From the IMG/VR virus record IMGVR_UViG_3300042276_000119, positions 1 through 64,000 of that record: DNA of 64,000 nt. One strand, given 5' to 3'. The position numbers and the translations under genes were made by a program. This DNA is from a virus. Its lineage: Duplodnaviria > Caudoviricetes. Below, piece by piece: positions 33,264 through 47,076 of the stretch. The notes below the pieces were generated by a model. The model was not told the DNA's origin and made no database searches. It saw nothing but the letters and a program-made list of their open reading frames with translations. Within the stretch, counting starts at the first letter, position 1; each line of letters opens with the position of its first letter.

Positions 33264-33872
33264 TCAGTGTGCAGCTTGGACTTTCTGACGTTCTGTGTAC
33301 CTGACCACCACGTCGGTTATACCGCCTAGATCAGTCTTCTCAGCTGCTCGCTCCGAAATACCTGCTTCCAGCTGGCCCAGTCTCAGCATGACCATCAGAA
33401 AGTCTGCCTGATCCTGCAAGTCCTTCAGAGAGCCGTTGTTGTCGATCACAACGTCAGCATCGCCCTTACGGAGCTGCATACTTTCCATAGGCTCAGGTAG
33501 CAGGTGCTCTGACCGGTCCACCCAGACCACTGCATCGAAGACGCCTGCTGCTTTACACGCTTCCAGTTCTTCCCGGTTGCGCACTCCGCAGTAGATGTCG
33601 TTGTCTTTTGTGACCAGACGAGCCAGGCGAGTCAGATCGCCCTCGTTAAAATCCCTGATCTCGTCGTGCATCCAGGGGCGGACTTCGCCACGGCGCTTGT
33701 ACAGGTCTTCGGGGGACACGAAGCCCAACCCGTGCTCAACGGACAGGTCAAACAAGAACTCTCTGCAGGCGATCAAACTGGAGGACTCAAAGCGCATCCC
33801 GTAGCGATCTCTCAACATTTCGCAGAAGGTGTCTTTGCCATGTCGGGCGTGGCCAATTACGAGTAGTTTCAT
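33264..33872 (-). CDS. dNMP kinase-like P-loop protein
   Basis: IGHARHGKDT Walker A, GVRNREE, ADVVIDNNGSLKDL. Confidence 0.75.
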   Translation of the reverse strand: MKLLVIGHARHGKDTFCEMLRDRYGMRFESSSLIACREFLFDLSVEHGLGFVSPEDLYKRRGEVRPWMHDEIRDFNEGDLTRLARLVTKDNDIYCGVRNREELEACKAAGVFDAVVWVDRSEHLLPEPMESMQLRKGDADVVIDNNGSLKDLQDQADFLMVMLRLGQLEAGISERAAEKTDLGGITDVVVRYTERQKVQAAH

Positions 33873-34195
33873 TACGAAGCCCTCTCTACACGGTATAGCT
33901 TGTCTGAGTCGGACAGGGCTTCTCCGCTTTCAGGGACCTCTGTGTAAGTCTCAAGCTGCTCTTTCAGTCGCTGGTTCTGATTCGTCAGCCTCGTAACCTC
34001 CTCCAGACACATGGCTTCTTGTTTGGACTCAGAGGCGATCAGCCACAACAGGGTTGAGTAGGCAACAACATCTGCCAATGTCCACCAGTCGAATCCGACG
34101 ATTGCCAGGTGCAGAACGCCTGCAGAAGCGTATGCCCACGCCAGAGCAAAGAACAGGTTCGCCCAGGTTGCGTGCTTCTTGATCCAAGTTTTCAT
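33872..34195 (-). CDS. Membrane protein with two TM segments and a coiled coil
   Basis: Hydrophobic segments; coupled to neighbours. Confidence 0.6.
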   Translation of the reverse strand: MKTWIKKHATWANLFFALAWAYASAGVLHLAIVGFDWWTLADVVAYSTLLWLIASESKQEAMCLEEVTRLTNQNQRLKEQLETYTEVPESGEALSDSDKLYRVERAS

Positions 34196-34401
34196 GCTTC
34201 CGCTCCCTTGGAATTGATCTGCGCCATCACCTCAGATTGGCTGCACAGAGCCGTCAACGACTCTCCGTTGTGCAGTGTGATCTGGCACCGGTTGTTGGCG
34301 TAGGTGTCATCTGAAATCATAGCGATGGCGTCTACAGCGAGGGTTACGGTGCCGACCATGCCGGCACCAAGGTTTCTGTTCACTGAAATGAACTTGCTCA
34401 T
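34192..34401 (-). CDS. Small hypothetical protein
   Basis: ATGA-coupled on both sides. Confidence 0.6.
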   Translation of the reverse strand: MSKFISVNRNLGAGMVGTVTLAVDAIAMISDDTYANNRCQITLHNGESLTALCSQSEVMAQINSKGAEA

Positions 34402-35777
34402 ACGGCCACCTCTGCCTTGATCGCAGGGTGTGGGTCGTAGAACTCGACACTGAAGTCGCTAACCTCGTAGTTACCAATGGACTTAGGCTCGAAAACCAGC
34501 TTTGGCAGTTCACGAGGCTTTCGGCTCAGCAGTTCCATAGCTTGCTCGAAATGATTGTGGTACAGGTGTAGGTCGCCAAACGTGTACGAAAGGTCTCCTA
34601 CTTCAAGGCCGCACTCTGCGGCGATAATGTGGGTAAGCAGGGCGTAGGATGCGATGTTCACTGGCACCCCGAGAAATATATCAGCTGACCTCTGGTAGAC
34701 TTGGCAGCTGAGCTGCCCGTCACACACGTAAAACTGGATAACTGACCCATGACAGCAAGGCAACTGTGCGTGTTCCATTGCTGGCGTAGCCCAAAGATTT
34801 ACTACGTGCCGGCGCGACTCTGGGTATTCTTTGATGTTGGCTATTAACAGTTTGAGCTGGTCTAACTGCCGAAATCTCTGCACCTTGCCAGGTTCTTCGG
34901 ACGTGTATTTGAACTCTGACCAGCCGTGGTGTGTGTGCAACTTCCCGTTTAGGCATCTATGAACTGCTGACAAATTCAATCCGAACAGTCTTTTTGCCTC
35001 CCCTATTGAAGGGAACAGTATGTTCTCGCCCTCTGGACTAACAGCGGTGAATGCCCTCTGGTTTGACACGTTGAAACCTTGCTCGTCATGCGAGGCCCAG
35101 CAGCAGGTCTCTTTTGAGTACCTGTTACTCGCGTGAAGTATGTCCTTGTCTATGCTGTAGTCTTTTGGGAAATGTTTCTTCAGCGTGTAGCCTATGAGAG
35201 TCTTGGCATCCTCAAAGAACTTACCAAAGTTCAGCCATTCCGGCGCAACATGAACCCCTACAGCTCCGTACGCTGCGTAACTTCTGCAGGTTGGGTCGTA
35301 ACATCTGCGAAGCATGTTTCTCCACACCTCTTTGAGCATCGCTTCTTCCGGCTCTACCCCATGGTGTGGCTTGCGTTTAAATTCGCCCAGGTCACCCACT
35401 CCGTAAACGAGCCCTTCTTTTGGCTCCGGCACGTAGGGCTCGAAAGTTTTCACTTCTGTAAGGAACCACCAACGGGCGTACCGGTACTGCTCCCCGTAGA
35501 TTGGTCCAAGACTGCCATCTGCCTTTTGCCAGGGCGTCCACCAATGCCTGACACTTTTTGGCAAGTCCTGTGTGTTCGTCGAGCCAGACAAGAACCACAG
35601 CAATTCTGCTACAGTGCCGCCTACAAACATTTTCTTCGTCGTCAGCAGCGGGAACCCTTGGCTCAGATCGAACCGCACCTGCCGACCGAATACAGATCGG
35701 GTGCCGGTGCCGGTGCGGTCACCACGGTCTTTGCCGTTGGTCATCACGTCTTCAAGCAGCGTGTGATATTGCTTCAT
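34398..35777 (-). CDS. thyA: Thymidylate synthase ThyA with in-frame HNH-type endonuclease/NUMOD1-like insertion
   Basis: DRTGTGT, FPLLTTKK, ELLWFLSG, LGPIYG, SRR, LPCCH, YQRSADIFLGVPVNIASY, GDLHLY.NH; ~200 extra residues at aa ~101-303. Confidence 0.93.
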   Translation of the reverse strand: MKQYHTLLEDVMTNGKDRGDRTGTGTRSVFGRQVRFDLSQGFPLLTTKKMFVGGTVAELLWFLSGSTNTQDLPKSVRHWWTPWQKADGSLGPIYGEQYRYARWWFLTEVKTFEPYVPEPKEGLVYGVGDLGEFKRKPHHGVEPEEAMLKEVWRNMLRRCYDPTCRSYAAYGAVGVHVAPEWLNFGKFFEDAKTLIGYTLKKHFPKDYSIDKDILHASNRYSKETCCWASHDEQGFNVSNQRAFTAVSPEGENILFPSIGEAKRLFGLNLSAVHRCLNGKLHTHHGWSEFKYTSEEPGKVQRFRQLDQLKLLIANIKEYPESRRHVVNLWATPAMEHAQLPCCHGSVIQFYVCDGQLSCQVYQRSADIFLGVPVNIASYALLTHIIAAECGLEVGDLSYTFGDLHLYHNHFEQAMELLSRKPRELPKLVFEPKSIGNYEVSDFSVEFYDPHPAIKAEVAV

Positions 35778-35959
35778 AGTTTGCAGGCGCCTCCAGCGCA
35801 GTCGTCGAGGTCCATGGACTCCAGCTCTTCCTTCTCGGCCAGGGTCTTTTTCAGGGCACCTGCAACGTCGTCATCTTCCTGGTAAGTGCCTTCGCTGTCT
35901 TCGTAGCTCTTGAACCATCCGAGGATGGTTCTGAGTTCTGCAATGGTCAGGTCGTTCAT
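35774..35959 (-). CDS. Small acidic protein ending CAGGACKL
   Basis: AAAGGA RBS; ATGA-coupled to thyA. Confidence 0.7.
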   Translation of the reverse strand: MNDLTIAELRTILGWFKSYEDSEGTYQEDDDVAGALKKTLAEKEELESMDLDDCAGGACKL

Positions 35960-35986
35960 GTAGTGGTCCTTTGGTTAGAGAGTTGG

Positions 35987-36226
35987 TTACTTCAGTTTTC
36001 GGTTCGCAGTGATTCGCTCGTAGTCATCACGGCAGTCTGAGTCACAGAAGAGCTTCACCTGCCGGTCCTGCATCTCGAAGGGTTCGTCACAGTTGTAGCA
36101 AATGCCTTTCGGGCTGAGCTTTGGCCCCGTGTTCAGCTGCGCTCTGGCGTTTGCGATGCCCATGTCGACAGTGCGTTGAATTTCAATGTCAGCCCTGTCG
36201 GCTGGGTCTCCGAAGTGAATACTCAT
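35987..36226 (-). CDS. TraR/DksA-like Zn-finger protein
   Basis: DPADRA (DxxDxA) tip motif plus CYNC...FCDSDC; coupled start 36226. Confidence 0.7.
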   Translation of the reverse strand: MSIHFGDPADRADIEIQRTVDMGIANARAQLNTGPKLSPKGICYNCDEPFEMQDRQVKLFCDSDCRDDYERITANRKLK

Positions 36227-36573
36227 GGATACGTCCACTCAAATTTTCCAGTTATCTTGTTGCCAAATTCGTCAATGTAGGTTGGCGTTGCATCTTTGCT
36301 GCGTTCCCAGTGTTCTCGGTGCACCAGAAGCAGAACAGGGTGATCCATCTCCCAGATGTGCCCACTCTCGAAGTAGGGGAATCTGGTTCCGGCGGGTACT
36401 TTGATCAGCAGAGGGCAGTCAACAGGTGGGAGTTCCTTGTTCAAATGCAGGTCGGTGCCAGGCAGCAGGAATCCCGCCACCGGCAACTCTGGGTGTTTCA
36501 TCGCCTTGAAATACATCAGTGGAGCCTGGCCAGGCTCCCCGAGTTCCAGTGCGCAGTTAGGACACCGCTGCAT
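36223..36573 (-). CDS. Hypothetical protein
   Basis: GGAG RBS before ATG 36573 (MQRCPNC), shorter than the ORF-track call. Confidence 0.6.
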   Translation of the reverse strand: MQRCPNCALELGEPGQAPLMYFKAMKHPELPVAGFLLPGTDLHLNKELPPVDCPLLIKVPAGTRFPYFESGHIWEMDHPVLLLVHREHWERSKDATPTYIDEFGNKITGKFEWTYP

Positions 36574-37189
36574 AGCGAGACTCCAGCGCTTGGTACAGCC
36601 CATCCACATCTGAAAACTCTGCAGCGAGTTCCACCAGGTGCTCATTGTCTTCACGACCGTCAGCCCAGACCTTGGTGTACTCGCCGCGAGTCTGGCCGTG
36701 ATTGATACGGAACCGGTTGAGGGTGTACTTGATGAAGTAGGCTTCGGCAATTTCACTGAAGCTGAAGCCGCAAGCTACGCACAGTTTGGTGAACCAGAAC
36801 ACGTCGAATTTGCCTTTCGTGGCTGCCTTCGCAAGGTCCCTGGCGTACTTGGCAACAGAACCCGCTGCAAGGTCTCCAGAGGGCCGTTCAGCCCCTGCAA
36901 CCATGTTGGCGACTGCTTCTGCCGCTGCGTCCTGCATCAGCAAGACAGACAGGCCGAAGTGCATGATGTCCACCAGTTCCAGTTTAACCTGCTCCGTATC
37001 GCACACCTGCTTGCGGTAGTGGAAGATGCTGCCATCGTGGTTGAGCAGTTCGCCGGTTTCGATCCAGATGTAGTCTGCGAAAGGGTGGCCTTTGGTGCGC
37101 CACTCGGGGCAGTCGTATTGTGCATTCAGAAAATCCTGCGCTTCAAGAAGCTGTTCAATGGTCTTTGTGCAAAGGTGCATTTTGTACAT
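36557..37189 (-). CDS. dut: Dimeric (all-alpha) dUTPase
   Basis: Q..LN, ETGELLNH, ELVDIMHFGLS, YFIKYTLNRFR..HG...G.Y.K.W.DGREDNE motifs. Confidence 0.88.
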   Translation of the reverse strand: MYKMHLCTKTIEQLLEAQDFLNAQYDCPEWRTKGHPFADYIWIETGELLNHDGSIFHYRKQVCDTEQVKLELVDIMHFGLSVLLMQDAAAEAVANMVAGAERPSGDLAAGSVAKYARDLAKAATKGKFDVFWFTKLCVACGFSFSEIAEAYFIKYTLNRFRINHGQTRGEYTKVWADGREDNEHLVELAAEFSDVDGLYQALESRYAAVS

Positions 37190-37199
37190 CCTTGGTTGT

Positions 37200-37224
37200 T
37201 AAAAACCCCGGCAATGCCGGGGTC
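37200..37224 (-). terminator. Intrinsic terminator after sbcC
   Basis: Minus strand GACCCCGGC-ATT-GCCGGGGTTTTT. Confidence 0.8.
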
Positions 37225-37248
37225 ATGGATCAGATTTTGTGGCCGAAC

Positions 37249-39414
37249 TCACTGGCCGACGTGAATCACGTTCTGGGCCGCAAGCTGCTCAAATGGCCGA
37301 TGGGTGATCATAACACACTGCCCACCGATGCCCATCAGTGCGCCTGCCAGTTGCAGAGCATTCTGATCATTCATTGCTTCAGTCGGTTCGTCAAGTATCA
37401 GTAGGCCGGTGTTGCCGTACAACGCTGCAGACAGTCCCACTCGCATGGCCACGCCGATGTGACCTTTCTGGGCACCGCTGCAGTTTGCGATGGGTACCCA
37501 CTTTCCGTTTTCCTCAGCAACAAACCCGCCGTTCTCGTCTCTGGCGATACGTCGAATTGCACCGGCAGTGCTGATGGCCACCTTGGCGCTGGCAACGCCG
37601 AGAATCTGATCCCACACCTGCTTCAGGTACTCAGTGCGGGACTCGACCAGGAACTTTTCCAGGCGTTTGTGGCGGTCAAGGTCCTCGGCAGTTCGGCGCA
37701 GCTGATCCAGTTGTTGAGTAAGCTGTTCCAGCTTATTACCAACGCCAGCCAGCTCCACTGACAGAGTTCGCAGGTGGCCAGACAGTTCAACCTGCTGTGG
37801 GGCCAGCTTTGCGATCTTTGCCGCAGTGTCTTCACGCTGTTGCTCTACGTCCCGCAACTCTTGGCGCCGGGCATCCAGTACATCAGGTAGGCATCTTGGC
37901 CCACGCTCTGTGACCTGTACCGCCGTGTCTCGCAACTTGGTGCGAAGCTCATCTACTCGCTTGCTGAGTTTGGCGCGATTTCGAGCAAGCTGTTCGGCGC
38001 CGGCAATCCTGGCTTCCAACTCCGCAGCGGTACGCTCCATCTGCTCGGCCTGTGCGGTGGCGTCGGCAGGGTTGCCCACCTCCATCTGCTCTAATTCCTC
38101 CAGGCGCATCTGTGCAGCGTTGTACTCTGCTGCTTTCATGCCACTGAGGTAACGTCCGTATTTCTTCTCCAGACCTTGCAGTCGCTCCACTTCCCTCTCG
38201 GTCTCGACGCGAGCAGATTCAACCTCCTGCAGCTGGGTAACCGCCAGGTCGATCCGCCCCTGGATCTCTGCAGGGTTATGATCATCGAATGGGCGGTCAC
38301 ATGCACTGCACACACCGGCTTTCAGCTCCTGTTTCAGCTTGGCGATGTGTTTCTGCAGCGTTCTCACCTCCTGGTACGTATCTGCATCAGCCCTTAGAGC
38401 CTCCTTAATCTGCTCAGCCGGAGGAACCCTGCTGGCCAAAACCTCTTCCTCATCAGTGGCTTCGCGCAGCTTTGGCAACTGCTTCTCCAGCTCAGCTTTG
38501 CGGTCGAGTGTATTCTGCCACTGCTGGGCGAGCTTGCGGGCTTCCTTGGCGCCTTTCCGCATAGCCTCGGCATCGGATTCGTCTTGGCCTAGGTCAGGCA
38601 CCTCAGGCAACGCCGCCAAGTCTTCTTCTGCCGATTCGAGTGCAGTTTGATACTCCTGACCCTGGAACCTCAGGTTCTCAAGCTCCTGCTGCTCACGCTC
38701 CAGTGCGCTGATTCTCGACCGTAGTGAAGTCTCGGCCGCTTTCAGCTGGTCGTCGTCAGTGCGGTACGTGGCGAGGGTACGTGAGAGTGAGTCCAACTCC
38801 CCCTCTGACTTGGCGATCTCTTGCTCCAACTCTGCCTGGCGGGTTTGCAGCGGGGCGATCTCTGCCTTAACTGCCTCGGGGTCGGATGATGCCGCGCTGG
38901 CCTTCAAAACGCCCATCTGGTGACGAACGGCAACCAACACACTGTCGATTACCTCCGCCCCTGAAAACGCCTCTACGCGCTTCTGGAGGGCCGTAGCGCC
39001 GAATGTCAGTACGCCGGCTGTCTCGCCCTGCATAGACAGGATGAACAGCGCGAAGTCTTTGAAGGCCAGGCCCAACAGTTCTTCGATGAACTTGGTGCAG
39101 GTGGTGTTGCCGGAGGCTACGATGTTGCCGTCCAGCTCGACCGCGCCGTTCCTAAGGTCTCTGGTAATAGTGTAGACATCCTGATCGTGCTCGATCACCA
39201 TCTTGATCTTGAAGTTCTTCTGGCCCCATGTGGGGATGTCCTCTTTCTTGCCGGGGATCGCAGTGAGTCCGTACAGGCCGGTCACGACGGCATGGAGCAG
39301 GGTGGTCTTGCCGGCCCAGTTGTCACCGATAATAGTGTTTAGCCCGTCAGTGAAGTCGGCGCGGAAGTCGCGCAGCTTCTTGAAATTCTGTACTTCGATG
39401 CTGATGAGTTTCAT
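37249..39414 (-). CDS. sbcC: SbcC/Rad50-like ATPase
   Basis: GDNWAGKTT, Q-loop SMQGE, CSAC zinc hook, CSGAQK signature, LILDEPT, ITH. Confidence 0.92.
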   Translation of the reverse strand: MKLISIEVQNFKKLRDFRADFTDGLNTIIGDNWAGKTTLLHAVVTGLYGLTAIPGKKEDIPTWGQKNFKIKMVIEHDQDVYTITRDLRNGAVELDGNIVASGNTTCTKFIEELLGLAFKDFALFILSMQGETAGVLTFGATALQKRVEAFSGAEVIDSVLVAVRHQMGVLKASAASSDPEAVKAEIAPLQTRQAELEQEIAKSEGELDSLSRTLATYRTDDDQLKAAETSLRSRISALEREQQELENLRFQGQEYQTALESAEEDLAALPEVPDLGQDESDAEAMRKGAKEARKLAQQWQNTLDRKAELEKQLPKLREATDEEEVLASRVPPAEQIKEALRADADTYQEVRTLQKHIAKLKQELKAGVCSACDRPFDDHNPAEIQGRIDLAVTQLQEVESARVETEREVERLQGLEKKYGRYLSGMKAAEYNAAQMRLEELEQMEVGNPADATAQAEQMERTAAELEARIAGAEQLARNRAKLSKRVDELRTKLRDTAVQVTERGPRCLPDVLDARRQELRDVEQQREDTAAKIAKLAPQQVELSGHLRTLSVELAGVGNKLEQLTQQLDQLRRTAEDLDRHKRLEKFLVESRTEYLKQVWDQILGVASAKVAISTAGAIRRIARDENGGFVAEENGKWVPIANCSGAQKGHIGVAMRVGLSAALYGNTGLLILDEPTEAMNDQNALQLAGALMGIGGQCVMITHRPFEQLAAQNVIHVGQ

Positions 39415-39444
39415 GGTCTGGTCCTTTGGTCTTTTGGTCAGTCT

Positions 39445-43461: not shown

Positions 43462-46400
43462 TTAAGCCGCTCTATTTGTAGCCCGCTCCCACAGGTGCAG
43501 GCGCTGCTGGTTTTCTTCCCAGGCCGCTCGTGCCGCCTGTTCGATCACCTCACGTTCCGGCAGTCGTCCCAGCTCTTTCACCTTGCCCCAATCAGGGCCG
43601 ACGGAGAACTCAGGCACCTGCGGCACCACATGCCCCGGAGGAGTGGCCTCGGACATCAGCTCGTTCATCTCAACGCAGTAGTCCCACACGTCATCAACGT
43701 GAACCCAGGACACTACCTCGTCGTAGATCGGAGCGAAGAACACCATCCGCAGGCGCTGGATCAAGCCACGCTGCCAGATGCCGGTCAGGACTTTCTTCAG
43801 CATGTCTGCAGCGGTGCCCTGGATTTCAAAGTTCGCACCCTGACGTTCCATACGACTGCGCTTGCCGGCTTCCTTGCTGAAGATGTCATCCGTCATGTGG
43901 CGGCGGGTGCCAAACGTTGTCTGGGTGAAACCGTAGGCACGGGCAAAGTCAGCAGAGCGTTCCTGCCAGATGCCGATGCCGGGGTAGGTGGCGTGGGCGG
44001 CTGACAGCAGTTGTTCTGCTTCTTCGACCGGCACTGTCAGGTTTCGAGACAGGGTTTCGGCCCCGGCACCGTATGACAGGCCGAAGTTTGTACCCTTTGC
44101 CTTCTTGCCACGCACCTTGCTGTAGTCCTTGTGATTAGCGTGACCTTCATCGTTGTAGGCTTCGATGAAGGTCTCGTAATCCACGCCGATGATCCCTGAT
44201 GCGGTCATGCCGTGCAGGTCTTTCTCATCTTCAGTGCGGTGGTAGTACGTGCCGTGCTCAGTGCGGGTGACCCCATACACTGACAGCAGGTTGGTATCCA
44301 TCGTCTGGCAGGCCATGATGCGAAGCTCCTGGCCAGAGTAGTCGATAGGCACTGCCACGTAGTCAGGGTGCGGCGGCAGGAACAGGCTTCGCATACGAAG
44401 TCCACTGTCACGCCGAGTTTCGCCCTTCGACACCTGTAGGATGTTCGGCGCACCTCCGGCAGGGCGGCGGGTCACCGTTCCGCAGTTGCGGACAGACGGA
44501 TGAATACGGCCGTCTGTCGGTCGGACCCAGTTCGGGTACGGCTTGTGGTACAGGCCGAGACGGGTGAGTGCCGCTTTCGCTTCAAGGACCAGGTTCAACA
44601 CCTCTGCCTTCCACTCGTGCTCGCCTTCGCAGTCGTTTGCCAAGGCCATCTTGATCACCTTGTCATCGGTGCCGGGGGAGCCTTCAAGCCCGAGGTTCAT
44701 GCGCGAGGACCCTACCTGAGGCTTGGTCCGCAGTCGTAACGGCAGAGCCAGCTTGCAGTACAGTAGTTCCTGCATCTGGTTTGGTGAGTTAAGCGACAGC
44801 TCATCGCCGTACTCCGAGATTTTCGGCTCGAAGAACTGTGCACAAAACTCGCACAATTGTTCGTAGGCTTCACCCTCGCGCTTGTTCAGCAGTTTTGAAG
44901 AGGCGCCCAGGAGCGTGACGAACTTCTGCTGCTGGGGCGTCAGCATCATCACTTCTTCGGTTTCAAAATCAACGCTGTGCTTGGCCAGCCACTCGGATAC
45001 AGCAGCCTGTGTGACTTTCTCAAGAGGGTCCATGCCAAGGGCATTGGTGACTCTCTCAAACTGCTTCACCGTAGGGGTGAACACCGGAGGAATCTCATCA
45101 CGGCCATAGGGGACATAAGGCACTGCCGCCTGCAGCTTGGTCTCCCAACGCTGCAACGCTGCGTCTGTCTGCTGACGAATCCAGACAGCCTGCTCGGTGT
45201 CCATGTTCTTGCCAGCCTCAGCCTGCTTCTTGTACTTCGATCTGAGGAGCTTTTTCTGGATCGGCTTCTCTGCCTCGATCAAACCCTCGACGCCGCTGTA
45301 GTCAAGCTGTGGGCCGTCCAGGCAGTGTTCTGAAAGGATCGCCCGAATCTTCTCGATAGCTTCCTGTGAGACGCGCTCGTCGTCTTCGCGGATACGGGAC
45401 ATCAGTTCAGTGTCCATCACCACCCCTTCCATGAACGCCTGCATCAACACGTTGGCTGTGTACAGCTCATTCTCTTCGTAGAAGTCGATGGTGCCTTCCA
45501 GCTGCAGGACCATGTGCATGAAATCGAACAGGTAGGCAGTGACAACGCCATCGTCCACGCCGTAGCTGAACACCTGCTCAGGTGTCAGTTCGGACATGTT
45601 GCTGACGCCGGCCGCTGCCAGGGTGTCCATGTAGCTGACTTGATCGTAGTTCAGGATCGACTTACTCAGGTACTTGAGGCCGGAGCGGCTGTTCTCGTCC
45701 ACGTAGCTGGACATGATGTTGGTGTCGTACAGGCCTTCCAGCTCGATACCCGCATTGGTCTTGGTCACCGTCATCTCAAACATGGCGTTGTGGGCAACGA
45801 GAGGTTTGTTCTCGTAGGCGAACATTACCAAGTCGATCAGGGTTTCGAGTGGTAGGTTGTGATCGCTCTTGTGACCCACGCTGACGTAGACAGAGGATTC
45901 AAGGTTCTGACCGAACGTCAGGACGCCACCCGTGATTTTCTGGCTGAGCACGTCCACGTAATCAGGGTCGTTCAGTCGGTAGCACTCAAACTGCTGGTCA
46001 TCCCAGGATTCATAGTCGAACGTGACGAAGGGCGATTTCAGAATTTCGTTCTTGATCGCTGCAATGAATCCGGGGTCGTATTCCTTCTGCGTGAGCAGGT
46101 ATGCCACGGGGAGGAACGGTTCAAACACGCTGAACAGGTCCTGGCAGTTGGCCGAGGCCAGTAGCTCCTGTACTTTTACCCGGTCGGCAACCCGGCGAGT
46201 CCACAACATCTTCGGCAGTTTCTTGCCGGCCGGCTTCCAGCACAGTTCTGGGTGCAGCTTGGCAACCTGCCACTGACGGCGGAACTCGTCCCAGTTGTTG
46301 ACCAACAGCTGCAGGGATTTGAGGCCGGTCAGCTCCAGCGCTTGCTGGATAGGCTCGATGTCCTTGGCCTCCACTGCCGCTTCGATCTCCTTGATACCGT

Positions 46401-47076
46401 CATACCCAACAGCGTTTACCAGCTCGTCCCACTTGGCAGGGCCGAAGCCTGGGACGCCTTTGTAGCCATCAGACGTGTCGCCCAGCATGGCTTTGCTGAT
46501 CGAGATGCAATTCTCTGCAGAGTTGAGCGGGAAGGTGTCTTTGTACCAGTCGTCGTCGGTGAAGCAGTCTTCTTTCAGGTTGACGATGGTGTCTTCGTTC
46601 ACAAGGGCCAGCAGGTCGGAGTCTACGGTGCGGACCTGCTTGATGCCCTTGAGGTTTCCGCACAGGTAGGCAATCACGTCGTCGGCTTCAACACCGTCCG
46701 CACCCACCTGCATGACGCCCAGGCGCTTGTACAGCTCGACCAGCAGCTTGTGCATACGCTCCATCTGCTCGTCTTCAATCTCGCAACGCTCCCGCTCGCC
46801 ACGCTTCTGCTTGTATTCAGGCAGCAGGTTCTGGCGGTATTTGATGCCCATGTCGTGGGCCACGATGATCTGTCGGGGAGCGTACTCGGCCAGCGCCGGC
46901 TCCAGATACCGTTCAATGAACTTGGCAAAGGTAAATTCTGCGGTAGGCACTACCTTGTCGCGGACGGCTGAGAAGATACCCTCCTGGTCGCCACCGGCAT
47001 GGTAGATGTGTTTGTAGCAGGCTTTATGGTCAAGGATCAGCCAGGACTCTGGCTTGTAGAGTGGTTGCTTACGCAT
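43462..47076 (-). CDS. polA: Family A DNA polymerase with 5'-3' and 3'-5' exonuclease domains
   Basis: EADDVI, DSDL, GDTSDGYKGVPGFG (5' nuclease); DYES, AHNAMFE, YGVDD (proofreading); DYSGQELR, R..AKGTNFGLSYG, YDE (polymerase motifs A/B/C). Confidence 0.95.
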   Translation of the reverse strand: MRKQPLYKPESWLILDHKACYKHIYHAGGDQEGIFSAVRDKVVPTAEFTFAKFIERYLEPALAEYAPRQIIVAHDMGIKYRQNLLPEYKQKRGERERCEIEDEQMERMHKLLVELYKRLGVMQVGADGVEADDVIAYLCGNLKGIKQVRTVDSDLLALVNEDTIVNLKEDCFTDDDWYKDTFPLNSAENCISISKAMLGDTSDGYKGVPGFGPAKWDELVNAVGYDGIKEIEAAVEAKDIEPIQQALELTGLKSLQLLVNNWDEFRRQWQVAKLHPELCWKPAGKKLPKMLWTRRVADRVKVQELLASANCQDLFSVFEPFLPVAYLLTQKEYDPGFIAAIKNEILKSPFVTFDYESWDDQQFECYRLNDPDYVDVLSQKITGGVLTFGQNLESSVYVSVGHKSDHNLPLETLIDLVMFAYENKPLVAHNAMFEMTVTKTNAGIELEGLYDTNIMSSYVDENSRSGLKYLSKSILNYDQVSYMDTLAAAGVSNMSELTPEQVFSYGVDDGVVTAYLFDFMHMVLQLEGTIDFYEENELYTANVLMQAFMEGVVMDTELMSRIREDDERVSQEAIEKIRAILSEHCLDGPQLDYSGVEGLIEAEKPIQKKLLRSKYKKQAEAGKNMDTEQAVWIRQQTDAALQRWETKLQAAVPYVPYGRDEIPPVFTPTVKQFERVTNALGMDPLEKVTQAAVSEWLAKHSVDFETEEVMMLTPQQQKFVTLLGASSKLLNKREGEAYEQLCEFCAQFFEPKISEYGDELSLNSPNQMQELLYCKLALPLRLRTKPQVGSSRMNLGLEGSPGTDDKVIKMALANDCEGEHEWKAEVLNLVLEAKAALTRLGLYHKPYPNWVRPTDGRIHPSVRNCGTVTRRPAGGAPNILQVSKGETRRDSGLRMRSLFLPPHPDYVAVPIDYSGQELRIMACQTMDTNLLSVYGVTRTEHGTYYHRTEDEKDLHGMTASGIIGVDYETFIEAYNDEGHANHKDYSKVRGKKAKGTNFGLSYGAGAETLSRNLTVPVEEAEQLLSAAHATYPGIGIWQERSADFARAYGFTQTTFGTRRHMTDDIFSKEAGKRSRMERQGANFEIQGTAADMLKKVLTGIWQRGLIQRLRMVFFAPIYDEVVSWVHVDDVWDYCVEMNELMSEATPPGHVVPQVPEFSVGPDWGKVKELGRLPEREVIEQAARAAWEENQQRLHLWERATNRAA

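Follow-up and report, generated by a model that had tools for sequence, protein, structure and literature searches.

An endonuclease-like domain retained in frame and without splicing in a phage thymidylate synthase

The window analyzed here, a stretch of 64,000 nucleotides from the record of a Caudoviricetes phage, encodes at 34398..35777 on the minus strand a thymidylate synthase (ThyA) of 459 amino acids, a single open frame that carries an in-frame insert. The frame is an open stretch of 490 codons with 0 internal stops, as a first-pass annotation made from the sequence alone had claimed in stating that both junctions are in frame. This is the only place in the 75,283-base phage record with a match to PF00303 and the sole thymidylate synthase found; no ThyX was found in the record. 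PF00303 matches the protein in two stretches (E 5.3e-91, 304.9 bits, cut-off 24.3), TIGR03284 scores 305.6 bits (cut-off 108.35), and phmmer against the PDB pairs residues 1-99 of Escherichia coli ThyA with amino acids 1-99, and residues 107-264 with amino acids 303-459. The gene is made up of an N-terminal ThyA segment (35478..35777, minus strand; amino acids 1-100, matching E. coli ThyA 1-99), the insert (34869..35477, minus strand; amino acids 101-303), which corresponds to a complete endonuclease-like protein of the free-standing type, and a C-terminal ThyA segment (34398..34868, minus strand; amino acids 304-459 plus stop, matching E. coli ThyA 107-264). Some 203 residues of insert thus occupy the place of a 7-residue loop of the E. 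coli enzyme; the annotation had proposed about 200 residues in place of a short loop, with exactly these boundaries, and the motifs it quoted (WRNMLRRCY, YGAVGVHV, IDKD, YSKETCCW and FPSIGEAKRLFGLNLSAVHRCLNGK) are all found in the translation. The catalytic cysteine and the dUMP- and folate-binding residues of E. coli ThyA, which we take to be R21, Y94, R126', R127', C146, H147, Q165, R166, S167, D169, N177, H207, and Y209, all have their counterparts in R21, Y94, R322, R323, C342 (codon at 34752-34754), H343, Q362, R363, S364, D366, N374, H404, and Y406, and these 13 positions are at least 90% conserved among 22 insert-bearing ThyAs. The insert-bearing ThyA retains the full set of catalytic residues, so that the motifs are intact as first described, and enzyme function is predicted.

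To interrogate whether the insert is removed, we searched for introns and inteins. No intron family of Rfam, group I included, was found at E<=10 in 33500-36800, the only match at this threshold being a snoRNA match of 16.9 bits outside thyA, and no Hint or intein family of Pfam was found at E<=1 in the ThyA protein. The junctions lie at R99/Y100-A101 and R302-Q303/L304 (QYR/YARWW and VQRFRQ/LDQL); as the annotation had noted of Cys/Ser and His-Asn, there is no Cys, Ser, or Thr at the start of the insert and no terminal His-Asn, nor is there a nucleophile after it, and intein chains match the insert model with Z of only 2.0-2.1 in a structure search. The intein reading was rejected on the missing Hint family and the unfitting junction residues. 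The intron reading was likewise rejected: besides the lack of an Rfam family, protein homology spans amino acids 119-306 and, since it fills the entire insert, leaves no space for a ribozyme core, and the frame is kept in 75 clusters of related ThyAs. Compared with the related contig L006, the insert frame has 11 synonymous and 5 nonsynonymous changes (dN/dS 0.12), and judged from these substitutions the insert is translated under purifying selection. An endonuclease hidden in another frame, of the ShiLan type, was rejected as well, as the four alternative-frame or antisense open reading frames scanned (35133-35885 and 34831-34962 on the plus strand, 34720-34956 and 35392-35598 on the minus strand) have no Pfam match at E<=1.

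Contigs of one RNA library cover the interior of the insert and extend across the 3' junction, a weak indication given that the library may hold DNA; at the 5' junction no contig of this library bridges by 31 nt or more. Two joints in the RNA evidence (34568 to 35631 in X20, and 34658 to 35674 in X24, the latter with 424 other letters between) were considered as splicing and rejected; they contact conserved ThyA motifs only and skip more than the insert, and are therefore read as insert-less thyA genes of other organisms. Stretches of X24 that lack coverage are uninformative. That an unrecognized intron, intein, or translational bypass nevertheless yields a mature ThyA without the insert has its precedents, thyA being known as a gene in which group I introns of phages typically settle (as in Bobb and beta22, in an excerpt of PMC4528723) and inteins being reported from actinophage thymidylate synthases (in the accessible part of 10.1101/2025.01.02.630785). 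Against the negative Rfam and Hint searches, two junctions without nucleophile, homology with no room for a ribozyme, a conserved and constrained frame, and a bridged 3' junction, we consider such removal very improbable, and the annotation's proposal of a splicing-independent insert stands.

Given that the source is an uncultured viral contig, the fusion could in principle derive from a mis-join during metagenomic assembly. This is practically negligible and already refuted by independent records with the same architecture: the contig L006 (95% amino acid identity), a contig of 1673 nt from a different run that spans 34398-35683, and cultured phages with complete genomes (UE-S1, KP13-7, 015DV002, and Kioshi), all with the insert inside thyA. 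A search with the insert region shows how widespread the arrangement is, as it yielded 76 proteins of which 75 are ThyAs that share this insert; this, together with a match to phrog_2081 at E 2.3e-41, indicates that the insert is not a product of chance. At least 75 metagenomic ThyA clusters (90% identity) carry it at the same site, with insert identities of 41-58% across 74 of them. Beyond these, the top 150 representatives at 50% identity include 62 long proteins, of which 51 are ThyAs, most of them split near Pfam positions 104-108 (range 87-109) and a few being fragments or split elsewhere. A word-indexed search with the insert alone returned 4 proteins, and a related-locus search with the ThyA protein alone 2 loci.

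The insert is predicted to fold on its own with a pLDDT of 94.4, which, with the catalytic residues kept, agrees with the annotation's view of a tolerated surface-loop domain. Three modules can be distinguished. The first is helical (35172..35351, minus strand; amino acids 143-202), with the signature W..M..RCY / YG..G.V...W.....F, of which R, C, G, and W are conserved in 84, 81, 84, and 84 of 85 sequences. The second is a beta-beta-alpha motif (35073..35162, minus strand; amino acids 206-235) consisting of a DYSI strand, D210-K211-D212, Y220, C225, a CCWA strand, and a helix with E232-Q233; in the model these form strand, loop, strand, and helix (strands 107-110 and 126-129, helix 130-135 in insert numbering). 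The third is a predicted DNA-binding module of the I-HmuI type (34893..35072, minus strand; amino acids 236-295) with a small beta sheet and a helix-turn-helix, where PF22083 (I-HmuI NUMOD-like) matches amino acids 245-287 with 38.6 bits (cut-off 27), a family also found in 69 of 81 family members scanned. The annotation had seen a NUMOD1-like helix-turn-helix here; a DNA-binding module does lie at this place, for which PF22083 is the more exact label. The C-terminal half of the insert superimposes on residues 116-174 of I-HmuI (VIA Z 8.9, rmsd 1.5, 59 aligned residues, 29% identity), and Foldseek matches the whole insert to I-HmuI (1u3e_M; E 1.9e-5, 118 columns), which phmmer against the PDB reaches only at E 0.54.

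The assignment of the remaining part to the HNH nucleases is less direct. The PHROGs matched by the insert (phrog_2081, 374, 953, and 3377) are annotated as "HNH (homing) endonuclease", a label that is an annotation and distinct from a test of HNH membership. No Pfam HNH model (PF01844, PF13392, and relatives) matches the ThyA-insert protein at E<=1, none occurs among the 25 listed of the 59 families matched by 81 family members, and NCBIfam has 0 families for the insert. With the N-terminal 138 residues of the insert, Foldseek gave no match at E<=0.001 and VIA no second family above chance; the best solved match is PacI (Z 4.4, rmsd 3.4, 84 aligned), and CAD scores Z 2.0. At the position matching the general-base His of HNH enzymes, which comes after the first strand and next to the conserved Asp, 80 of 85 insert-family sequences have Lys (Lys211 here), 4 have Arg, and one has a gap, with His in 0 of the 85; by motif and model, Lys211 would be the equivalent of that histidine. 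The reading of the core as DKD was accurate, and the broader description of the insert as phage-HNH-like holds with respect to the PHROG match, but not to the Pfam models shown or the base position. Other parts of the motif are strongly retained: the tyrosine is invariant in 84/85, the first turn of the helix has at insert position 133 an Asn in 58/85 and a Gln in 26/85 (Gln233 here), preceded by Glu in 51/85 (Glu232 here), and the D-K-D / Y / N-or-Q constellation as a whole is kept in 78-84 of the 85, while 14 insert residues are invariant across 23 sequences. HNH nucleases have a metal-binding Asn or His where the helix begins, and a metal role is predicted for this position. As a Lys is found where HNH enzymes have their catalytic His, the nuclease activity is only putative, and the insert may be regarded as the candidate nuclease partner of what was termed a "bifunctional ThyA-nuclease".

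The D-K-D beta-beta-alpha family comprises about 15,000 representative clusters, and free-standing relatives of the insert occur in 187 phage records, at up to 2 places per listed record. The Bacillus phage Chotacabras encodes one of these (gp46, 240 aa, 34% identity, E 3e-25) two genes upstream of an insert-less thyA, and the related Bacillus phages Kioshi and 015DV002 have the module inside thyA. These distributions bear on an alternative in which an old endonuclease insertion has lost catalysis and now serves ThyA as an attached DNA-binding domain, which might hold dTMP synthesis close to DNA under replication or act in the control of expression, its presence and absence being due to ordinary homologous recombination between co-infecting phages or to in-trans mobilization by other nucleases. 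The missing catalytic His, the lack of a Pfam HNH model among the families shown, and the fact that the sole strong structural match is the DNA-binding part of I-HmuI would all fit such a domestication, for which SMAD MH1, described in part of PMC3384342 as a beta-beta-alpha fold with DNA binding kept and catalysis lost, offers a model; in the domain tree, moreover, 70 of 81 free-standing forms fall in one clade apart from the embedded forms. On the other hand, the free-standing relatives keep the same D-K-D/Y/N motif as the embedded inserts and are scattered like homing endonuclease genes, some of them beside thyA. A motif free of chemistry would not be expected to be invariant in both lifestyles, which weakens the domesticated reading.

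Insert-less thyA alleles were found in L010, L011, L013, and the E. coli jumbo phage Turkey5, the last being syntenic with the insert-bearing UE-S1. L010 and L013 have a neighboring dNMP kinase 100% identical to the one found here, yet their ThyA is insert-less and 280 aa long. In a blastn comparison with L010, homology of 83.7% extends up to 35573 and resumes from 34738; the tract that cannot be aligned (34739..35572, minus strand) comprises the insert with about 95 nt of upstream and 130 nt of downstream thyA, and non-alignable tracts surround the insert in two phage groups. Compared with the insert-bearing L006, a low-divergence tract is seen at 34608..35687 (minus strand; about nt 91-1170 of thyA), with 0-7 differences per 90 nt inside and 13-21 outside, where the ends of the gene are much more diverged; dS is 0.04-0.17 inside and 0.46-0.63 outside, a 3- to 10-fold reduction for the insert with its flanks relative to the ends of the gene. 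The thyA sequence that travels with the insert on its flanks amounts to about 100-260 nt.

The two sides of the gene also differ in their relationships. In its distal part, thyA shares 83% identity with L010 and 58-64% with the remaining insert-bearing ThyAs, whereas in its proximal part the values are 52% with L010 and 67-74% with the others. The distal tree supports a lineage clade (99.6; alternative rejected with p-AU 0.0096) and the proximal tree a clade of the insert type (97; lineage clade rejected with p-AU 3.4e-8), the groups for the AU test having been named after inspection of the FastTree trees. The proximal segments of most insert-bearing ThyAs form this clade of their own, while those of UE-S1/KP13-7 and 015DV002 still group with their own lineages. 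We conclude that the insert and flanking thyA are exchanged together by within-gene recombination, which the conflicting phylogenies formally support, and the insert-less alleles in near-identical phages suggest that the insert is still moving between genomes, as predicted for a selfish, mobile element. It should be noted that identity along the genomes of these phages is often mosaic.

The insert shares with homing elements a fixed site with presence and absence in close relatives, coconverted flanks, and a history in conflict with that of its host gene. Since mosaicism is common, a recombination tract centered on the insert is in itself no proof of nuclease-driven conversion, and it also fits the domesticated alternative, as does the long codivergence of the insert with proximal thyA seen in the insert identities and the insert-type clade. 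A separate observation is that such a proximal clade would also be expected of an allele type that is old and inherited stably, and that ordinary recombination has shuffled. Speaking against domestication are the centering of the low-dS tract between two lineages on the insert, and the coexistence of plus and minus alleles in phages with a 100% identical neighbor gene; all in all, we regard loss of catalysis as unlikely, if the most serious of the alternatives.

The explanation we favor, with modest confidence, is that of an in-frame, unspliced element of the homing type, a putative nuclease, that is tolerated in a ThyA loop. The loop that follows the YG.Q.R motif of thyA holds, in frame, a complete gene of a homing-endonuclease family with its helical, HNH-like beta-beta-alpha, and I-HmuI-type DNA-binding modules. 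Spliced neither as RNA nor as protein, this gene is translated into an additional domain of ThyA. The embedded domain would nick or cut insert-less thyA near the codons for YGKQWR...IDQ, the target in an allele of the L010 type surrounding the codons for LGPIYGKQWRSWDRGPYAPIDQI, and the insert-bearing allele would be spared, its site being split by the insert. Repair from the insert-bearing allele during co-infection would then copy the insert together with its roughly 100-260 nt of flanks, that is, homing with coconversion. Catalysis would need Lys211 or Tyr220 as general base in place of His, with Asp210 and Gln233 holding the metal, for which PacI is a precedent as an active beta-beta-alpha nuclease without a His base (PMC3384342, in the excerpt available). 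A bolder extension, possible though short of probable, is that the D-K-D family as a whole represents an active His-less branch of the HNH nucleases using Lys or Tyr, whose ThyA-embedded members would follow a third, splicing-free homing lifestyle besides introns and inteins, with the nuclease produced as a functional domain of the very enzyme that it interrupts, and whose present spread among phages that occur together would proceed by gene conversion.

For insert-less phages in the same cell, the break could in addition be a handicap. An active nuclease kept mainly as a weapon against the thyA of such competitors, with spread by conversion secondary, would be in line with the occurrence of both allele types in closely related phages and with the competitive advantage that an intron-encoded endonuclease confers in phage PhiPA3 according to part of PMC11620839. 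The data here do not separate benefit from drive, though, and this reading rests on the same putative nuclease activity as the homing-type element; we consider it quite unlikely.

Textbooks ascribe the persistence of homing endonuclease genes in essential genes solely to their removal by an intron or an intein. In the present case, a whole protein of an endonuclease family remains in the mature enzyme, the only thymidylate synthase of the phage, and the arrangement is common, being found in 75 clusters (90% identity) and in another 51 representatives (50%). If the domain cuts DNA, it would reveal a splicing-free lifestyle for selfish nucleases and a catalytic HNH variant without His; if it does not cut, a selfish element has turned into a domain of a metabolic enzyme. 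As cultured E. coli and Bacillus phages exist with both allele types, the question is open to bench experiments. That a folded domain of 200 residues is accepted by this ThyA loop is also useful to protein engineering, and the case serves as a warning for annotation that long "thymidylate synthase" genes can hide a second function.

A group I intron with its endonuclease is well known from the thymidylate synthase gene of phage T4 (td/I-TevI). Similar introns with endonuclease genes are described for the Bacillus phages beta22 and Bobb (partial text of PMC4528723); they share with the present case a selfish endonuclease gene inside a coding sequence and coconverted flanks, but are spliced out as RNA, whereas the present insert shows no detectable ribozyme and is retained in the protein. 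I-HmuI, from the SPO1 DNA polymerase intron (PDB 1U3E), resembles the insert in its C-terminal DNA-binding module, the beta-beta-alpha unit before it, and its monomeric, extended, modular build. It differs in being intron-encoded rather than in frame without an intron, in using His75 as general base (PMC3384342, in part) where the insert has Lys, and in that the N-terminal helical module of the insert is without a counterpart in solved structures. Free-standing phage "HNH" proteins such as Chotacabras gp46 have the same order of modules over their whole length and the same invariant residues, but possess their own start and stop; the insert lacks both and is made together with ThyA as one protein. 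For the N-terminal part, the HNH-type restriction endonuclease R.PacI (PDB 3M7K) gives the best structural match (Z 4.4-5.1 over 84-92 residues, a Z in the chance range), and its Tyr, which appears from part of PMC3384342 to replace the His base, recalls the near-invariant Tyr of the insert family; it is a zinc-bound homodimer, whereas in the insert no zinc site is evident and just two cysteines are conserved. The IPA-HNH homing endonuclease of ICP1-like phages is similar by description, in the excerpt of PMC10448857 (Barth, Dunham and Seed 2023), as a divergent HNH-like domain that Pfam HNH misses and that is coupled to a domain for DNA binding; it is abundant in phages, where it lies close to essential genes and at boundaries of genetic exchange; its DNA-binding domains are of the AP2 type, to which the insert with its I-HmuI-type module has no match. 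A literature search of openly accessible articles returned no account of a ThyA that carries an endonuclease-like insert in frame. The nearest published cases are two insertions in DNA methylase genes of actinophages, the ShiLan domain and a lone LAGLIDADG domain (Gosselin et al. 2023, PMC9957025, and Arsenault et al. 2025, PMC11855218). As far as the accessible portions of these papers describe them, these too are patchily distributed in-frame insertions at a conserved site of a phage enzyme gene, without a detectable intron or intein, and are predicted to form a domain or loop of their own that leaves the host enzyme undisturbed. They differ in their host gene, a methylase rather than thyA; in the case of ShiLan, in an HNH endonuclease hidden in another frame, while the insert in ThyA is itself the endonuclease-like protein; and in having canonical HNH or LAGLIDADG motifs, whereas the ThyA insert is I-HmuI-like with D-K-D.

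The thyA gene of the window phage (34398..35777, minus strand) is a 459-aa ORF carrying the insert at 34869-35477 (aa 101-303), in frame and with coordinates exactly matching those of the first-pass annotation. The 490-codon open frame around thyA contains no stops, and Pfam searches match the thymidylate synthase family PF00303 in two stretches (E 5.3e-91), with PF22083 'I-HmuI NUMOD-like' as one additional domain at aa 245-287 (38.6 bits vs. a cut-off of 27); the NCBIfam model TIGR03284 gives 305.6 (cut-off 108.35). In a search of solved structures, Escherichia coli ThyA residues 1-99 align with aa 1-99 and residues 107-264 with aa 303-459, so that approximately 203 residues replace seven in E. 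coli. The residues that we take to be catalytic in E. coli ThyA are kept without exception in the alignment, and 22 insert-bearing ThyAs conserve each of them at 90% or more, in agreement with the earlier claim of intact catalytic motifs. This is the sole thymidylate synthase of the 75,283-base viral record, in which PF00303 occurs at one place and no ThyX was found. The gene sits within a minus-strand replication and nucleotide-metabolism block: DNA polymerase, resolvase, ligase, SbcCD-like proteins, MazG-like protein, DksA-like protein, thyA, and dNMP kinase. Two gene calls of the block should be noted. The 1204-aa DNA polymerase ORF (43462-47076, minus) is longer than is usual for family A-type phage polymerases, with an exonuclease-family match at aa 37-232 and a polymerase match beginning only at aa 342. 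A 177-aa ORF without a PHROG match (36223-36756, minus) overlaps the 210-aa MazG-like NTP pyrophosphohydrolase (36557-37189, minus) by 200 nt; probably one start call is wrong or the shorter frame is no gene.

An intron is ruled out on three grounds. Rfam searches of 33500-36800 at E<=10 returned no intron family, the only match being a snoRNA of 16.9 bits outside thyA; a phrog_2081 match spans aa 119-306 (E 3e-41), and because protein homology fills the insert there is no space for a ribozyme core; and the insert is translated under constraint, with 11 synonymous and 5 nonsynonymous changes (dN/dS 0.12) against the 95%-identical contig L006 of a close relative. An intein is ruled out likewise: No Hint or intein family of Pfam matches the protein at E<=1, and the junction residues (GEQYR/YARWW at the 5' end, VQRFRQ/LDQL at the 3' end) are unfit, lacking Cys/Ser/Thr nucleophiles and His-Asn of the intein type. 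The absence of both, as first annotated, therefore holds. An out-of-frame nuclease gene like that of the ShiLan insertion was also rejected, because four other-frame or antisense ORFs at thyA have no Pfam match. One antisense ORF of 250 aa (35133-35885, plus), which runs across the insert and the N-terminal half of thyA, has no Pfam match at E<=1 and probably arose by chance from base composition. Among contigs of one RNA library aligned to the thyA region, one (34778-34952) bridges the 3' insert junction and another (34935-35415) lies inside the insert; because none bridges the 5' junction, and such a library may contain DNA, they lend weak support to an unspliced transcript. Removal of the insert by an unknown kind of splicing is thus very improbable.

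The insert is an entire protein, a member of a large phage family. Residues 62-239 of Bacillus phage Chotacabras gp46 ('HNH endonuclease', 240 aa), a free-standing gene, match aa 112-290 with 34% identity (E 3e-25), and an exhaustive phmmer search with the insert recovered 14,957 representative clusters at E<=0.001, 784 of them at E<=1e-10. When 145 of the best 150 representatives were sorted by length, 83 were short (<340 aa) and 62 long; 51 of the long ones are ThyAs, mostly split near Pfam positions 104-108 (range 87-109), with a few fragments or proteins split elsewhere. Longer ThyA-insert proteins (520-564 aa; e.g., P0020, P0024, P0025, P0044, P0059, and P0073) carry an extra module of approximately 70 aa ahead of the insert (alignment A1 columns ~200-275, pattern ...G..TVIKE...R..F.VKFHDTG....V.Y..VQ...), as does gp46 at its N-terminus; the window insert is without it and is therefore a shorter form of the element. 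One 362-aa protein (P0259) fuses the endonuclease-like module to an RNase_T exonuclease domain, and one short family member (alignment A3) has a weak DHFR_1 match (E 1.3e-4), hints of other fusions or of neighbors in a thyA-DHFR locus.

The AlphaFold model of the insert (pLDDT 94.4, 36-sequence alignment) superposes residues 136-195 on the DNA-binding region of I-HmuI (VIA Z 8.9, rmsd 1.5, 59 residues, 29% identity), and Foldseek matches the C-terminal part to I-HmuI at E 1.9e-5. A DNA-binding module of the NUMOD kind thus stands, with PF22083 as the match in place of the NUMOD1-like helix-turn-helix first annotated. Folded alone (pLDDT 94.5), the N-terminal 138 residues have no Foldseek match at E<=0.001, and their best solved match, the HNH restriction enzyme PacI (Z 4.4), is unconvincing. 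A strand-loop-strand-helix unit occupies insert residues 107-135 of the model. Across 85 sequences (the window insert, 83 short family members, and gp46), the strand is followed by Asp (83/85), Lys (80/85; Arg in 4), and Asp (78/85), the loop holds Tyr (84/85) and Cys (83/85), and the first helical turn has Glu (51/85) and then Asn (58/85) or Gln (26/85). In I-HmuI, His ending the first strand acts as the general base and Asn at the helix start holds the metal (PMC3384342). By position, the insert family appears to keep the acidic and amide ligands, with Lys replacing His. No Pfam HNH model matches the window protein, and none was among the 25 families listed of 59 matched across 81 family members. 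Since a tyrosine appears to stand in for His in PacI, and SMAD MH1 domains still bind DNA after losing catalysis (PMC3384342), either an active or a catalytically lost insert is possible by analogy. A domesticated, nuclease-dead domain is a possible but less favored explanation.

The insert has a patchy distribution at a single site. A search with the insert region returned 76 proteins, 75 of them ThyAs with the insert (285-564 aa; 41-58% identity in the insert, the window's own cluster excepted), and cultured phages bear it at the same site: E. coli phage UE-S1 (Asteriusvirus) and Klebsiella phage KP13-7 (ThyA of 517 aa in both), and Bacillus phages 015DV002 (564 aa) and Kioshi (L030 1856-3502; 548 aa). 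An artefact is therefore barely conceivable. Of 3,712 ThyA-matching phage records, 11 cover at least 80% of the query; tblastn with the insert alone found 187 phage records, the majority being phages of Staphylococcus, Vibrio, Bacillus, Enterococcus, and Lactococcus. On a tree of 213 domains (132 embedded in ThyA, 81 free-standing), switches between the two states number 10, compared with a mean of 65 after shuffling, and a single clade unites 70 of the free-standing forms; the embedded inserts are therefore mostly one old, diversified lineage, not repeated captures. The distal partition of the Kioshi ThyA shares 23-38% identity with other ThyAs (45-86% among themselves), and this protein may represent another branch of the ThyA superfamily.

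Insert-less alleles occur in near-identical phages. Four IMG/VR contigs come from close relatives of the window phage. Two of them, L010 and L013, encode a dNMP kinase with 100% identity to that of the window and a 280-aa ThyA without the insert; the ThyA of L011 is also insert-less, and that of L006 bears the insert. In blastn, the window aligns with L010 at 83.7% identity as far as thyA nt 205 and resumes at nt 1040, leaving unalignable the insert with ~95 nt upstream and ~130 nt downstream. With L010, the window shares 83% identity in distal thyA (aa 1-48 and 376-459) and 52% in proximal thyA (aa 49-99 and 304-375); with other insert-bearing ThyAs the relation is the opposite, at only 58-64% distally and 67-74% proximally. 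IQ-TREE phylogenies, calculated excluding Kioshi, conflict accordingly, and FastTree agrees: In the distal tree, the window groups with L006, L010, L011, and P0085 (support 99.6; alternative rejected, p-AU 0.0096), and in the proximal tree it and L006 cluster with four ThyAs bearing the insert (support 97; lineage grouping rejected, p-AU 3.4e-8), the groups having been named after the first trees had been seen. Against L006, dS is 0.63 and 0.46 at the gene ends, 0.17 in the 5' flank, 0.09 in the insert, and 0.04 in the 3' flank. The insert has thus been exchanged together with its flanks.

Comparable pairs occur elsewhere. Escherichia phage Turkey5 (L008 2501-3430), a jumbo phage syntenic with UE-S1, has a 309-aa ThyA without the insert; flanks and gene ends share 76-77% nucleotide identity, and UE-S1 aa 91-418 are unalignable. 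At the loop bearing the 250-aa insert in UE-S1, Turkey5 has ~40 extra residues (CWEDYKFSAVTEEIQELKDKGYKVLDYTGSHGVVMKR), which may stem from a loop expansion of unrelated origin or be all that is left of an insert after decay. In the Bastillevirinae, the module lies two genes upstream of thyA in Chotacabras and within thyA in Kioshi and 015DV002. Mosaic identity is common along the genomes of the window phage and its relatives, which exchange short segments often: Over 33700-39431, identity to L006/L016 and L010/L018 shifts abruptly from block to block (e.g., 100% over 180 nt upstream of thyA with 65-80% nearby, or 94.7% beside 83.7% against L010). By their proximal segments, most ThyAs with the insert fall into a clade to themselves, and a similar pattern would result from an old allele type shuffled through ordinary recombination; the proximal segments of UE-S1 and 015DV002 still cluster with their own lineages.

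The absence of intron and intein, the constraint, and the insert-less alleles support the first-pass reading of an unspliced, tolerated selfish element, which as a homing-type element in a ThyA loop we hold to be somewhat better than an even prospect. It would need no splicing because the site, a surface loop of the small-domain region, would tolerate a folded domain; modeled strands at both insert ends (4-8, 186-191, and 198-202) would, if paired, fit a domain placed into a hairpin. The product of the interrupted gene would bind the uninterrupted allele and nick or cut it near the YGKQWR...IDQ codons, and repair templated by the interrupted allele would carry the insert across along with adjoining thyA sequence. 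A mainly competitive role appears improbable.

No in-frame endonuclease-like insert in ThyA was described in the literature searched. The nearest published cases are in actinophage DNA methylases: a lone LAGLIDADG domain outside any intein, predicted as its own domain (PMC9957025), and the ShiLan insertion, which reads in frame, has neither intron nor intein, and conceals an HNH gene in another frame (PMC11855218). The divergent IPA-HNH genes of ICP1-like phages, also missed by Pfam, are set apart from the window insert by their AP2 domains (PMC10448857). What the window contributes is a naturally occurring group of near-identical phages, some with the insert and some without, together with formal evidence that it travels along with its flanks. 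We regard the insert as a variant on a recently described type of insertion; from the methylase cases it differs in its host gene, in its nuclease family, and in that the in-frame product is the element itself.
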